NCBI GenBank assembly: GCA_016185545.1
Contig: JACPNJ010000005.1
Location: 79,013-143,012 of the forward strand
Direction of reading: 5' to 3'
DNA from: Candidatus Yanofskybacteria bacterium
GTDB lineage: Bacteria; Patescibacteriota; Minisyncoccia; 2-02-FULL-40-12; IGHO2-01-FULL-4-A
DNA: 64,000 nt
Part shown: positions 7,256-46,559 of the stretch, piece after piece
Position numbering within the stretch: the stretch's first letter is position 1
Layout: each line of letters begins with the position of its first letter
The notes under the pieces: generated by a model
Seen by the model: only the letters and a program-made list of their open reading frames with translations
The model's database searches: none
What the model was told of the DNA's origin: nothing
Made by a program: the position numbers and the translations under genes

Positions 7256-7449
7256 GTTTATATGAGTCGTGGTATAATTTTCGTATGGTTATTTAATAAT
7301 TAAAATCGAGGGTAAAAATGAACGACACTGCTACTTTCACGAACCTAAACTTGCGGGGCTTTTCTATTTTTATAAACAGGCTGGGGCAAGTGGTTACCAA
7401 TTTTTATCTGTTGGCTTGAGCAGTAACAAATAAATGTTGATTTTTGAAG

Positions 7450-7592
7450 TTTTTCGCTGATAAAGAAAATTGGGACGGAGCGGAGCCCCGAGCGTAGCGA
7501 GGGGCGTAGCGTAAGGGGTACGATTTTTTTATCTAGAAAAACGAGAAAATCAACATATTATTTGTACTGCGAGGACACCTGATAAAAATTGG
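7450..7592. repeat. left copy of a perfect 143-bp inverted repeat flanking mreC-mreB
   Basis: Exact reverse complement of 9583..9725 by direct comparison; contains the GC hairpin region ggagcggagccccgagcgtagcgaggggcg. Confidence 0.9.
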
Positions 7593-7604
7593 AAACCACT
7601 TGCC

Positions 7605-8473: not shown

Positions 8474-9523
8474 TCAGATATAGGCTTCTTTGGCCGTCCA
8501 TGCCAAAACATCTTTGAGTGAATCAAGATGTTCCAGAACCATGCCACAACCGCGCACAACTGCCGTCATTGGATCATCTACAATTTTTACCGGGAGTTTG
8601 GATTCGTGGCTGATTAACTCATCAAATCCGCGCAGTAAACTGCCGCCGCCGGCAAGAAAAATGCTACGATTCAGTAAATCAGCAATAAGTTCGGGCGGTG
8701 TCTCCTCAATTGTGCTTTTTATGGCTAAAACGATGCTTCTTATAGAACGATGCATTGCTTTACGCACTTCTTCCGAAGTTATAGTCAACTCCTTAGGCAA
8801 TCCCGTAAGAAGATCGCGGCCACGTACCTGAATTGTCAATTCTTCTTCAAGCGGATAGGCGGAACCGATTGCTAATTTGATATTTTCCGCAGTAGCATCG
8901 CCAATGAGTATATTATGCTCCTCTCTCATAAATTGGCTGATATCGCTGGTTAATTTATCACCGGCAATTCTTAAAGAACGTGAAGCAACAACGCCACCCA
9001 TAGAGATAACCGCAACATCAGTCGTACCCCCGCCGATATCAACAATCAGATTAGCCGCGGCATCCTGAACAGGTAATCTGGCGCCTATCGCCGCCGCCAT
9101 TGGTTCTTCAATTAGAAAAACCTTGCGCGCTCCGGCATTATAAGCTGCATCCTCCACCGCTCTTTTTTCCACTTCGGTAACACTTGCTGGCACGCCTATT
9201 ACCACGCGCGGACGCGGCATCAAAGAAAATGACTTTTCCTGTGCTCTGTCTATAAAGTATTTGAGCATCTGTTCTGTTACTTCAAAATCGGAAACTACAC
9301 CGGCTATCAGCGGTTTTGAAACCATTATGTAGCCGGGTGTGCGGCCAACCATTTTGCGGGCATCTTGGCCAATGGCAAGAATTTGTCCGGTTTTTTGATT
9401 TATCGCGACAATTGACGGCTCATTTATGATAATCCCCTTGCCGCGAATATAAACCAGGGTATTGGCAGTACCCAAATCAATGCCGATATCCTTTGACCAA
9501 AAATTAAAAAATCGTTTTAACAT
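8474..9523 (-). CDS. mreB: rod shape-determining protein MreB (actin homolog)
   Basis: 349 aa; MLKRFFNFWSKDIGIDLGTANTLVY...DIGGGTTD; actin/Hsp70 fold motifs. Confidence 0.92.
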   Translation of the reverse strand: MLKRFFNFWSKDIGIDLGTANTLVYIRGKGIIINEPSIVAINQKTGQILAIGQDARKMVGRTPGYIMVSKPLIAGVVSDFEVTEQMLKYFIDRAQEKSFSLMPRPRVVIGVPASVTEVEKRAVEDAAYNAGARKVFLIEEPMAAAIGARLPVQDAAANLIVDIGGGTTDVAVISMGGVVASRSLRIAGDKLTSDISQFMREEHNILIGDATAENIKLAIGSAYPLEEELTIQVRGRDLLTGLPKELTITSEEVRKAMHRSIRSIVLAIKSTIEETPPELIADLLNRSIFLAGGGSLLRGFDELISHESKLPVKIVDDPMTAVVRGCGMVLEHLDSLKDVLAWTAKEAYI

Positions 9524-9582
9524 GGCAACAGTTTAACATAACAAAATTATTATTAATAATCAAAAATTACAGCTCGCCATTA

Positions 9583-9725
9583 CCAATTTTTATCAGGTGT
9601 CCTCGCAGTACAAATAATATGTTGATTTTCTCGTTTTTCTAGATAAAAAAATCGTACCCCTTACGCTACGCCCCTCGCTACGCTCGGGGCTCCGCTCCGT
9701 CCCAATTTTCTTTATCAGCGAAAAA
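9583..9725. repeat. right copy of the 143-bp inverted repeat
   Basis: Exact reverse complement of 7450..7592. Confidence 0.9.
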
Positions 9726-9799
9726 GCCAATTGATAAAAATTGATAATGGCTCACTCTCATATTTTTACGGGAATATGAAGTCCCAAAAGACACTATGG

Positions 9800-10320
9800 T
9801 TCGGCTTACCTTAAAATTTTGTGACAAAACAAAAACCCCTCGAATGGCCAAACTCGAGAGGTTGGTTCAAAAACAGGTGGCTACCACGACCATTACTTTT
9901 GGCCAAGTAATGGTCAGCCCGCTCAATGGCTACAGGCTCTCCCGGCCTGCCCATCGCTTCCACATGCCCGTCATGCCTTTCTCCTTTCGTTTCGGCATGC
10001 AGTTTGTCAGCCAGTAGGATCACCTTGCGGGTGATGCTGGCTGGGGTGGAAATATTAAGAGTCAAATTGACTCTCGGAGGAACGCGAGAGTCAGGAACAC
10101 TACTGGTCCGGCAACTCCTTCATCGTTACTCCTTTCGTAACGGGTTATTGGAAACCCGAGCGGAGCCAGCCTATCATGTGATCGGCGTTCCGCTGCTCGG
10201 GAGGAGATGCCGTGATAGCAGACGTTGGCGGACACGCAGTCCGCTCTGATGACGTCTTCACGGCAAGCAGAGTCGCCTTTTCTCATTTCCTCGGCAACCC
10301 AGCAAACAGTCCCGAAAGAT
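9800..10320. other. GC-rich, hairpin-dense non-coding island; possible structured RNA of unknown class
   Basis: Local GC is clearly above flanks; only short overlapping ORFs on both strands with non-protein-like composition; many perfect local stems (gactctcg/cgagagtc, cgttac/gtaacg, gcgga/tccgc). Confidence 0.35.
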
Positions 10321-10541
10321 GTAAAGAACTAAGTCTTTTTATAATTAATTTCGGGACTTTTTGCTAGGCTCGAATCAAATTCAAGTTCAATTTAAGAAAA
10401 GTGGCTGGAGAAAGCTGTTTTTTAGCAACAGGTATGCGTCCCCCCGGCGCATCACTATTGCCAATCAACCCTCCCCAGCAAAATACCAACAAAATCAATG
10501 AATTATTGGCATTTTGCTAGGTTCAACTTATTACATATTCA

Positions 10542-11825
10542 TTATAACAAAATATCTACTATATTGTCAAGCTCTATTAGTTTGGCATCTTTCTCACCCC
10601 TCCTTTTTACTTCAACACTCTTCTTTTGTAAAGTCTTCTCACTGACGACAAATCGCAACTGACAGCCAATTAAATCGGCATCGGTAAACTTCTCACCGGC
10701 AGATTTGTCCATCCGGTCATCATACAAAACTTCTATGCCGCTATGCAAGACCTTTTCATAAATTTCATCTCCAGATTTTTCCGTTCCTTCCAATGCCAAT
10801 AGATGAACCTTAAATGGCGCTACCGCTTCCGGCCAAATAATTCCCTCATCATCATGGTGTATTTCCACCAAAGCTCCCATAACTCGCCCCAAGCCGATAC
10901 CATACGAACCCATGATCACGAGATGCGACTCCCCTTTCTCGTCAACAAATTTCAAATCAAACGCTTTTGAATATTTATCACCCAACGGAAAAGTATTGCC
11001 GACTTCAATTGATTTGCGCTCTACTATTTTGCCTTTGCATTTCGGGCACTGGCCGTTGTTCATTAATTTTGAAATCTCCTTATTCTCCGCGTATTCGCAT
11101 TTATCACAAATAAAAATCGTATCCTCGCCGATATCGGCAAGCACTTGAAACTCATGGGTGTTCTCCGCGGTAAATGTCCCGCCAGCGGCTATGGTATAAA
11201 TTGCCTTCAGCCCGCAACGGTGAAAAATCTTATGATATGCTCCTTTCACATCTTCATAATATCGCCAAAGGTCATCTTCCGAGGCGTGGAAACTATACAG
11301 GTCTTTCATCATAAACTCCCGCCCGCGCAATAAACCGGACTTGGCACGCGGTTCGTTGCGGAATTTGGTTTGTATCTGGTAAGCGGCAAAAGGCAGGTCT
11401 TTGTATGAACTGACGAAACGCGAAGCAATCGCCGTCAACACTTCTTCATGAGTCCAACCCAAAACAAAATTACTTAGAGGCTCAACCTCGTAGAGGCTCA
11501 ACCTCGTGGAGGTTGAGCCTCTACGTACTGCATGATCATTGGCTATCTTGAATCCTACCTCAACTTCCCATCTGCCAGTAGCATCAAGATATTTTTTTTC
11601 AACCAACGCCGGCATAAACATTTCTATCCCGCCGATCTTGGCCATTTCTTCTCTGATAATGCCAGCAATTTTTTGCATCACTCGCCAGCCCAACGGTAAA
11701 AAAGTGTAAATTCCCGCAGAGTTTTTGTATATGAAACCGCCACGCTCGAGCAACTGCGCATTAACGCTTGTTTCATCTTTGGGATTCTCGCGGGTTGTTT
11801 TGGTAAAAAGTTGAGATAACTTCAT
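10542..11825 (-). CDS. proS: prolyl-tRNA synthetase
   Basis: Class II aaRS motifs, zinc-binding CDKC...CPKC, C-terminal anticodon-binding domain; start at MKLSQLF; carries an in-frame palindromic insertion. Confidence 0.88.
   Translation of the reverse strand: MKLSQLFTKTTRENPKDETSVNAQLLERGGFIYKNSAGIYTFLPLGWRVMQKIAGIIREEMAKIGGIEMFMPALVEKKYLDATGRWEVEVGFKIANDHAVRRGSTSTRLSLYEVEPLSNFVLGWTHEEVLTAIASRFVSSYKDLPFAAYQIQTKFRNEPRAKSGLLRGREFMMKDLYSFHASEDDLWRYYEDVKGAYHKIFHRCGLKAIYTIAAGGTFTAENTHEFQVLADIGEDTIFICDKCEYAENKEISKLMNNGQCPKCKGKIVERKSIEVGNTFPLGDKYSKAFDLKFVDEKGESHLVIMGSYGIGLGRVMGALVEIHHDDEGIIWPEAVAPFKVHLLALEGTEKSGDEIYEKVLHSGIEVLYDDRMDKSAGEKFTDADLIGCQLRFVVSEKTLQKKSVEVKRRGEKDAKLIELDNIVDILL
11474..11525. 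repeat. palindromic element family A (GAGGCTCAACCTC x2 plus inverted copy) inserted in frame in proS
   Basis: ttagaggctcaacctcgtagaggctcaacctcgtggaggttgagcctctacg translates on the minus strand to RRGSTSTRLSLYEVEPL within ProS. Confidence 0.85.
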
Positions 11826-11995
11826 TACTTTTATGATAACAAATTCGCGGCTTGGTGAATAATGCCTCATAGCACCGTCAAAAGAGTGGATTGTAAGGTT
11901 TGCGAGCAGTATAATAGTAAAACACTGCAAGCAAAATCCACGCTTTTGACGGAACGTAGCAACCTCGCTGGGGTTGCAAGTGGTGATAGGAGGCG

Positions 11996-46486: not shown

Positions 46487-46559
46487 CCGCCCCTAGCTCA
46501 ATTGGCAGAGCAGCTCCCTTTTAAGGAGAAGGTTCCGCGTTCGATTCGCGGGGGGCGGA
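46487..46559 (+). tRNA. tRNA-Lys (anticodon UUU)
   Basis: Hand-folded cloverleaf: acceptor ccgcccc/ggggcgg, D-arm gctc..gagc, anticodon loop cTTTTaa, T-arm ccgcg-ttcgatt-cgcgg; no encoded CCA. Confidence 0.85.

Follow-up and report, generated by a model that had tools for sequence, protein, structure and literature searches.

What is encoded in the GC-rich gap between proS and mreB of a bacterium of the Candidate Phyla Radiation (CPR)? The stretch of DNA analysed here, 64,000 nucleotides (nt) of contig JACPNJ010000005.1 and hereafter called the window, comes from such a bacterium, whose ProS is 60–81% identical to ProS of Candidatus Yanofskybacteria and other Parcubacteria metagenome-assembled genomes. 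Its island at positions 9800–10320 lies between proS (10542–11930, minus strand), the upstream neighbour, and mreB (8474–9523, minus strand), the downstream neighbour. A first-pass annotation made from the letters alone had seen no credible open reading frame (ORF) in the island and no hallmark of RNase P, transfer-messenger RNA (tmRNA) or signal recognition particle (SRP) RNA, and had suggested an unassigned structured RNA, perhaps riboswitch-like, or a remnant of foreign high-GC DNA. We give about an even chance to the explanation that the island is an independently transcribed, lineage-restricted, heavily folded coding (dual-function) small RNA (sRNA) of a Candidatus Yanofskybacteria subclade. 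The RNA is unclassified and is a member of no described family.

The jump in composition that first drew attention to the island is plain: 200-nt windows have a GC content of 50.5–57% over 9800–10299, against 34–41% (9400–9899) and 36–45% (10200–10699) in the flanks. Relative to dinucleotide shuffles, its folding energy has z = −10.3 on the plus strand and −7.1 on the minus strand. The longest ORFs have 107, 84 and 74 amino acids (aa), and none exceeds 107 aa. Rfam 15, run over the whole window at the gathering threshold, returned only a tRNA-Lys at 46487; over 9500–10600 at E ≤ 10 it returned only chance microRNA and snoRNA fragments of 9–22 bits, and in the homologous loci it found tRNAs only. 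The description as an unassigned structured RNA holds up, both in these searches and in the helices, which covary in relatives.

Strand, ends and fold of the island RNA

On comparative grounds the functional strand of the island RNA is the minus strand, because its conserved G·U pairs would be A/C mismatches on the opposite strand. The predicted transcription unit (about 9825–10534, minus strand) exceeds the region first marked out, and its core, the part with homologues, spans about 480 nt (about 9825–10306). The predicted σ70 promoter, also on the minus strand, matches the consensus at 12/12 positions, with TTGACA at 10565–10570, an 18-nt spacer and a TG-extended TATAAT at 10541–10546. Its −10 hexamer includes the proS stop codon TAA (10542–10544), and transcription is predicted to start at about 10534. 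The layout cTTGACAa...tTTGyTATAAT is kept at the proS end in 11 of 13 related loci (loci carry L numbers), the exceptions being L337, which differs, and L009, which has TAAAAT. In L019, which lacks the island and has 24 nt between the two genes, the proS-end promoter stands directly in front of mreB and is thus ancestral.

At the other end, a terminator scan placed an intrinsic terminator, T, at 9825–9863 on the minus strand, with a 12-base-pair (bp) stem at 9834–9863 and then UUUUUGUUUUG. It has a GC-rich stem and then a U tract (12-bp stem plus TTTGTTTTGT), the stem covaries in relatives (eight pairs scored, four of them compensatory), and it ends about 300 nt ahead of mreB. Promoter and terminator, the two ends by which a coding sRNA would be recognized, are both predicted and both conserved across relatives. 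No strong promoter was found on the plus strand of the core (best matches ≤9/12).

In the relative L006 the core has a homologue of 480 nt (nhmmer E 3e-49), and the window–L006 pair gave 123 predicted base pairs, 21 with compensatory changes. A hand-curated model comprises 14 helices with 88 pairs, which are 95.6% paired over five sequences, against 36–41% when the partners are slid; 14 of the pairs are compensatory. Identity over the aligned core is 68%, compared with 49–60% at fourfold-degenerate sites of mreB, proS and mreC; about 400 of the 480 core nt are non-coding, yet conserved and covarying. As modelled, the core would form at least nine helices, and the loop of hairpin A2 would contact that of the terminator.

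Helix B (10209–10264, on the minus strand like every feature of the RNA below) has a conserved internal loop, CGUCAUC...AACG, and the tip GCGGAC-UGCGU-GUCCGC. Its 19 pairs are 89–100% paired in the four sequences having the helix, and the motif occurs at another position in L007, L008, L085, L090, L092 and L094. Helix C (10155–10201; CCCGAGC(AGC)GGA...UCCGCUCGGG) has nine pairs, 93–97% paired in five sequences, and helix D (10057–10075; GAGAGUC-AAUUU-GACUCUU) has seven, three of them compensatory. The seven outer pairs of helix E (10008–10044; CCAGCCAGC...CUGGCUG) are invariant in three sequences, while its inner stem covaries, AUCACC/GGUGAU becoming GUUCGC/GCGAAC in L006. A long hairpin follows hairpin A1 (described below) in all 11 relatives folded; in the window this is hairpin A2 (9888–9915), with an 11-bp stem of variable sequence (eight pairs, four compensatory). 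The A2 loop UGGCCAA (9899–9905) is complementary to the terminator loop UUGGCCA (9845–9851), and the seven pairs of this kissing helix are 100% paired in four sequences. In L006 a C-G pair has become U-A (GGCC/GGCC to GGUC/GACC), and this paired change of both loops supports an intramolecular kissing contact.

The helices listed by the first-pass annotation are present in the window: agagtca-aat-tgactct at 10059–10075, gactctcg...cgagagtc at 10069–10092, cgttac...gtaacg at 10125–10143 and gcgga...tccgc at 10219–10237. Comparison supports agagtca/tgactct, which is helix D, and gcgga/tccgc, which is the tip of helix B; gactctcg/cgagagtc and cgttac/gtaacg give way in relatives to a conserved pairing of GGAGUAACG with CGUUCCUCC. 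What that reading overlooked was the strand, the micro-ORFs and the modular, hypervariable context of the island.

Two micro-ORFs and the stop codon in hairpin A1

The early verdict that the island has no credible ORF was right about long genes (≤107 aa, no Pfam match) but passed over two conserved micro-ORFs of 7 and 11–14 codons, each led by a Shine-Dalgarno (SD) sequence. The ORF1 module (10076–10135) contains SD1, AAAGGAG at 10129–10135, and ORF1 at 10100–10123, which reads AUG AAG GAG UUG CCG GAC CAG UAG (MKELPDQ*, seven codons) and ends with a stop codon in the loop of a small hairpin. SD1 (GGAGUAACG) pairs with a conserved anti-SD, CGUUCCUCC (10076–10084), within the conserved GCGUUCCUCCGAG (10073–10085); the SD1:anti-SD helices are 94–100% paired, and SD1 is predicted to be paired in 3/3 sequences. 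All five genomes that have the module have an SD-led ORF1 of 7–8 codons, with the peptides MKELPDQ (the window and L335, with two synonymous differences), MKELWGL (L006), MMKFWGQ (L329) and MKKAFPGL (L334).

The ORF2 module (9930–9987) has SD2, AAAGGAG at 9981–9987, 6 nt before the AUG of ORF2 (9930–9974), which reads AUG ACG GGC AUG UGG AAG CGA UGG GCA GGC CGG GAG AGC CUG UAG (MTG-MWKRWAGRESL*). The conserved core, MWKRWAGRESL, begins at the second AUG (9930–9965); the ORF has 11–14 codons and ends at UAG (9930–9932). The window, L006, L329, L335 and L336 share one and the same core peptide, and all five variable nucleotides are silent (AUG/GUG, AAG/AAA, CGA/CGG, CUG/UUG and UAG/UAA); the indel in L006 is of 3 nt and in frame. 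A second subgroup has peptides of the type M..FLWRAGDRTL, so that the C-terminal consensus is W-[KR]-R-x-A-G-[RD]-[ER]-[ST]-L. A third ORF after ORF2, with the A1 loop as its SD, was considered and dropped because it occurs only in the window.

ORF2 ends inside hairpin A1 (9921–9957; GCGAUGG-GCAGGC-loop-GCCUGU-AG-CCAUUGAGC), in which a conserved G·U pair is followed by a 2-nt bulge: the stop codon consists of the U of that pair and the two bulged nucleotides. Among 11 divergent sequences, 98.3% of the cells of the A1 alignment are paired, 5/11 pairs are compensatory and the G·U pair is kept in 10/11. These values were reached by 0/500 shuffles, a statistic that overstates significance because the homologues (five close and about ten distant) are phylogenetically related; the same holds for the chance rate of an SD-led ORF ending at the bulge, 2–11% per locus in dinucleotide shuffles of the upstream 70 nt. 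Such an ORF, with an in-frame AUG or GUG and an SD 4–12 nt before the start, is present in 13 of the 14 loci with A1. The stops at the bulge include UAA, UAG and UGA, and three frames relative to the RNA motif are in use, each with its own matching start; in L005 and L092 frame and start have shifted together. The A1 covariance model finds a single copy in the window (9920–9962, 45 bits, E 2.5e-11) and, over 98 loci and 826 kb, copies only in proS–mreB islands.

A modular island and its neighbours

The order proS–mreB is found in 67 of the 83 loci examined, usually with a gap of 6–270 nt; a non-coding, GC-rich gap of 0.7–1.4 kb is confined to the closest relatives of the window. Homologues of the core occur in five related genomes. 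Scanning metagenomes for the most conserved hairpin brought in 11 further islands, and look-ups through ProS homologues added L329, L335 and L336, which have the window-type RNA, together with more variants. The modules follow the order promoter, hairpin 1, small module, usually tRNA-Cys, hairpin 2, variable GC-rich modules, terminator and mreB promoter. The tRNA-Cys is absent from the islands of the window, L006, L089 and L090, and modules are reshuffled among genomes whose MreB proteins are 84–97% identical. What the window shows at this place is a single variant of a hypervariable non-coding island that is built of modules and often includes tRNA-Cys.

Hairpin 1 (10473–10521; CCUAGCAAAAUGCC...GGUAUUUUGCUGGGG) is an inverted repeat forming a terminator-like stem of about 19 bp near the predicted 5′ end of the transcript. 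Its type stands directly after proS in L004, L005, L008, L009, L334, L335, L336 and L337, and within the 64-kb window it occurs at this locus only. The spacer module between hairpins 1 and 2 (10396–10472) contains the GC hairpin GCGCCGGGGGGACGC; most relatives have a different small module and tRNA-Cys at this position. The tRNA-Cys lies there in L004, L005, L007, L008, L009, L084–L086, L091, L092 and L094, and ARAGORN found no tRNA at the position in the window. Hairpin 2 (10298–10368; CCUAGCAAAAAGUCCCGAAA...UUUCGGGACUGUUUGCUGGG), the most conserved mark of the island and found in all related islands, has a 31-nt loop on a stem of 20 positions, among them one conserved A/G mismatch and a U·G pair. 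It shows compensatory changes (AGCAAA/UUUGCU to GCUAAA/UUUAGC in L007 and L009), and its U·G pairs fit only a minus-strand RNA. Our guess is that hairpin 2 is a processing site or a former terminator; its loop was also considered as a promoter and as a pairing partner of the ORF2 start, and neither proposal is conserved.

Further features were noticed in the relatives. Just after proS, in L331 and L332 and at 1130–1330 in L006, 3262–3400 in L007 and 6480–6600 in L009, there is an extra conserved module (CCUCGCGAAAU.GGCUUAA...UUUCGCGAGG) with a GC-rich hairpin and a U tract; it is not in the window and has no Rfam match. The tRNA-Cys of L005 (1564–1639), L007 (3422–3494) and L009 (6623–6695) has an abnormal anticodon loop (CCCGCAAG) of 6 or 8 nt, depending on the stem, to which ARAGORN assigns no anticodon; L004 and L008 have a normal CUGCAAA loop. 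At 1620–1770 in L005 the tRNA-Cys 3′ end and about 40 nt more (ccacccggcgcttccaccctcggcaagcctcgacaaaaagt) form a direct duplication on either side of an insert of about 100 bp, which is the footprint that would be expected of site-specific integration at a tRNA. Between the RNA terminator and mreB, L089 (2030–2740), L332 (3084–3788) and L333 (2600–3304) have an inserted gene for an IS200-like Y1 transposase (234 aa; HUH and Y motifs), which has hairpins of its own, TTGAAGC.AAGCTTCAA, on either side. The islands of L004 (2950–3049) and L007 (4006–4105) are interrupted by runs of exactly 100 N, which are probably scaffold gaps and suggest that this hairpin-rich region is hard to assemble.

On the mreB side, after the terminator, mreB has a predicted promoter of its own, TTGATT-17-TATGTT, beside its AUG, and in island-less relatives this promoter comes after a plain terminator; this speaks for independence of the island from mreB. 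The sequence (TTGATT-17-TATGTT(A/G), 9524–9566, minus strand) stands at the same position in L006, L007, L009, L017, L035, L059 and L085. It ends only about 10 nt before the AUG and no SD is found there, which suggests that the mreB mRNA is leaderless or nearly so. The repeat on this side is a 146-bp element (9580–9725); an inverted copy, 99.3% identical, lies a short way downstream of mreC (7450–7595), so that the two copies bracket mreB-mreC. The element sits within a 34-nt imperfect inverted repeat (9562–9595 and 9732–9765), and further coordinates for it are 7394–7444 in the window, 2009–2138 in L093 and 390–537 in L094. It looks like a miniature inverted-repeat transposable element (MITE), and it probably explains why the public short-read contigs L001–L003 break 78 nt upstream of mreB. 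On the other side, the 462-aa proS ORF, which begins at a TTG, is probably over-extended: homologues have 410–440 aa and cover about 92% of it, and the ATG at 11870 gives 442 aa.

Candidate identities, rival explanations and known systems

Several identities were tried for the island and rejected. RNase P, SRP RNA, 6S RNA, riboswitches, T-box, OLE, GOLLD, ROOL, raiA, HEARO and ribozymes have no Rfam support in the window or in the homologues, and no fit was found by eye to the P4/CR motifs of RNase P, the Alu and S domains of SRP RNA, the hammerhead CUGAUGA core or the 11-nt tetraloop receptor. ARAGORN found no tmRNA in the window or its relatives, and the ORFs here have SDs and AUG or GUG starts, unlike the SD-less, start-less tag ORF of tmRNA. 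The riboswitch-like interpretation finds no support, since no aptamer model matches and the predicted unit has its own promoter and ends in a terminator, after which comes the separate conserved promoter of mreB. A trpL-type attenuator would explain a short SD-led leader ORF, but no antiterminator is predicted, and mreB, with a conserved promoter of its own, would not depend on read-through. A selenocysteine insertion sequence (SECIS) or other recoding signal was ruled out because all three stop codons are used. The peptides, of 7–16 aa and charged, differ from the hydrophobic toxins of about 20–60 aa of type I toxin-antitoxin systems, and the core has no strong plus-strand promoter. A dispersed repeat of the repetitive extragenic palindrome (REP) or MITE type would have several copies per genome; in the 64 kb, one copy is found by the core profile and one by the A1 model, and the hairpin pattern is confined to a single locus. 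CsrB-like GGA sponges, attC/integron-like cassettes and REPs of the IS200-like transposase of L089 were likewise set aside: the hairpins are confined to the locus, there is no integrase, and the transposase hairpins are different.

A conserved or decayed protein gene was also rejected. Five ORFs gave no Pfam match, and the window and L006 differ by indels of 1 and 2 nt, which exclude a long ORF. Exact-protein look-ups of the 107-aa and 84-aa ORFs returned no record; among 5.8 billion proteins the 84-aa sense ORF matches only its own annotation, HYX20_02560, a GenBank "hypothetical protein" of 84 aa (9811–10065, minus strand). As an orphan that overlaps helices D, E, A1 and A2 and terminator T, HYX20_02560 is almost certainly a false gene call over the RNA. 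In L005, L089, L009 and L094, ORFs of 60–110 aa run through the RNA and read conserved nucleotide blocks in differing frames, which makes them open frames of GC-rich sequence and no conserved protein. The proposed foreign remnant or decayed gene finds no backing in these results: the protein search with the 84-aa ORF recovered only the genome's own annotation, there is no similarity to any protein, Pfam family, phage or plasmid, and conservation lies above that of fourfold-degenerate sites. BLAST against phages and plasmids gave no match to the island; among viral contigs, two specific motifs gave nothing, and two loose motifs gave random coding matches and ordinary short-loop terminators.

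If the island is a coding sRNA, the transcript would run on the minus strand from the promoter over the proS stop codon to terminator T, and ribosomes would engage it at ORF1 and ORF2. The SD of ORF1 would be locked by the conserved anti-SD, whereas that of ORF2 would be mostly open, and a ribosome would have to melt A1 for termination at the bulge stop. Selection would act on the fold in the 5′ two-thirds of the RNA and, in the 3′ third, on a Trp/Arg-rich, C-terminally conserved peptide or on the act of translating and terminating it. Beyond this lies a more speculative proposal, which we think is unlikely to be right: a new translation-coupled RNA device of CPR bacteria, built on an 11-codon ORF for a conserved Trp/Arg-rich nascent peptide, in which termination or stalling of the ribosome at the stop formed by the G·U pair and bulge is sensed and remodels an RNA in which the kissing contact holds the terminator loop, or else a source of 11–16-aa Trp/Arg-rich peptides that are bioactive products of an episymbiont.

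A number of points count against the coding sRNA. The host organism is uncultured. An SD precedes only 7 of the 47 large ORFs of the window, and the GGAG motifs could serve RNA pairing instead; predictions of the accessibility of SD2 and the AUG are mixed. L089 keeps A1 with UUA in place of the stop codon and has no start, and the pattern U followed by AA, AG or GA could also reflect a requirement for purines in the bulge. The peptides at the ORF2 position of L005, L008 and L092 differ and are unrelated, and the relatedness of the homologues inflates the shuffle statistics, as noted above.

Much of this would be explained by a pure non-coding structured RNA (a scaffold, a sponge or a base-pairing sRNA) whose micro-ORFs are by-products of GGAG/CUCC pairing and of a bulge made of a U and two purines. 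In its favour, conservation over most of the core is of the RNA type, a conserved helix buries SD1, SDs are rarely used in the genome, L089 has A1 without an ORF and covariation of the A1 stem extends beyond the stop codon. By-products would hardly be expected to bring SD at 4–12 nt, start and stop together in 13/14 loci despite three frame changes, where chance gives 2–11% each, to leave all five variable nucleotides of ORF2 silent, unpaired third positions included, or to keep the L006 indel in frame; we judge this explanation improbable, if the most credible of the rivals. The opposite extreme, a transcript that is chiefly an mRNA for one or two tiny Trp/Arg-rich peptides of 11–16 aa and whose fold only stabilizes the message or limits translation, has in its favour the good SD spacing and a C-terminus that is alike in the two main subgroups despite different codons (GRESL versus GDRTL), with synonymous changes within each. 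Against it stand the roughly 400 of the 480 nt that do not code but are conserved and covarying, the extreme shortness of 11 residues for a product that stands alone, the lack of a nearby gene for export or modification, and the unrelated peptides of L005, L008 and L092; we regard it as quite improbable.

A ribosome-dependent leader or attenuator, in which read-through of T into mreB-mreC would be set by translation of ORF2, with its Trp codons, or by a stall on it, is suggested by the position of a short SD-led ORF with 1–3 Trp codons just upstream of a strong terminator and by the proS-end promoter, which in L019 is the ancestral mreB promoter. In silico, a ribosome at the ORF2 stop or at the second UGG, a Trp codon, left T and A2 unchanged in 4/4 sequences, and no antiterminator is predicted. 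With mreB having its own conserved promoter immediately before the AUG, relatives without the island included, and with the 146-bp repeat between T and mreB in the window, this explanation seems very improbable to us. We give hardly any credence to the last alternative, that the island is non-functional mobile or foreign debris at a tRNA-Cys integration hotspot. Compared with most Parcubacteria, whose proS–mreB gap is 6–270 nt, the island is inserted DNA, its content is hypervariable and modular, its GC content is above the genome background, the tRNA 3′ end is duplicated in L005 and an IS200-like transposase is present in L089 and L332, all as debris would have it. Debris would not be expected to maintain its helices by compensatory changes, to be conserved beyond silent sites or to keep promoter and terminator intact, and searches of phages, plasmids, viral contigs and proteins turned up nothing similar to the island.

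A non-coding island of 0.7–1.4 kb kept between two essential operons is conspicuous in the small, gene-dense genomes of the CPR (Patescibacteria), and to our knowledge almost nothing is known of regulatory RNAs in the CPR. Three points about the island are unusual: an unclassified, covarying RNA of about 480 nt with a kissing loop, conserved micro-ORFs in an SD-poor genome and a stop codon in a bulged hairpin. If the idea of a sensed termination event or nascent peptide is true, this would be a new regulatory design; if it is not, the island would still stand for a new RNA family and mark a fast-reshuffling non-coding hotspot next to tRNA-Cys.

Among known systems, OLE, GOLLD, ROOL, raiA and HEARO (all in Rfam) are likewise several hundred nt long, GC-rich for their genomes and narrow in range, with many covarying helices and tertiary-type contacts; unlike them, the island RNA matches no model at E ≤ 10, has SD-led micro-ORFs and consists of modules shuffled among close relatives. 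Type I toxin mRNAs such as hok and fst share with it a high degree of folding, a sequestered SD (that of ORF1), an interaction of the terminator loop and a variable intergenic island. In contrast to hok and fst, the island peptides are non-hydrophobic and shorter than 16 aa, the partner of the terminator loop is in the same molecule, and no antisense RNA or promoter was found, the search for an antisense RNA being a promoter scan only and not a direct test. TnaC and the fungal arginine attenuator peptide are regulatory nascent peptides that act at or near a stop codon. ORF2 resembles them in its conserved C-terminus, its N-terminus of variable length and sequence, its conserved Trp and the conserved position of its stop; unlike them, it has no downstream gene or Rho site to control, is shorter and is not conserved in three loci.

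The coding sRNAs SgrS/SgrT, RNAIII/hld and SR1/SR1P (reviewed in PMC12612679) are independent transcripts that have a promoter and a terminator to themselves, fold extensively and contain a short ORF, as is predicted here. The ORFs of the island are much shorter (7 and 11–14 codons), and the island is restricted to a CPR subclade. In Sinorhizobium meliloti, rnTrpL is an attenuator-derived sRNA that also encodes peTrpL, a leader peptide of 14 aa that contains Trp and acts in trans (PMC6614838, PMC7298713). The likeness lies in a small structured transcript ending in an intrinsic terminator and in an SD-led ORF of about 11–14 codons with Trp codons, and the island RNA may, like rnTrpL, have both RNA and peptide (or translation) functions. 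Unlike rnTrpL, it has no downstream trp genes, no predicted antiterminator and no sequence relation; with about four times the length, it also has its stop codon within a conserved bulged hairpin and keeps a loop-loop contact to the terminator. By analogy, the island RNA would be closest in kind to the coding sRNAs and to leader-peptide RNAs such as rnTrpL/peTrpL.

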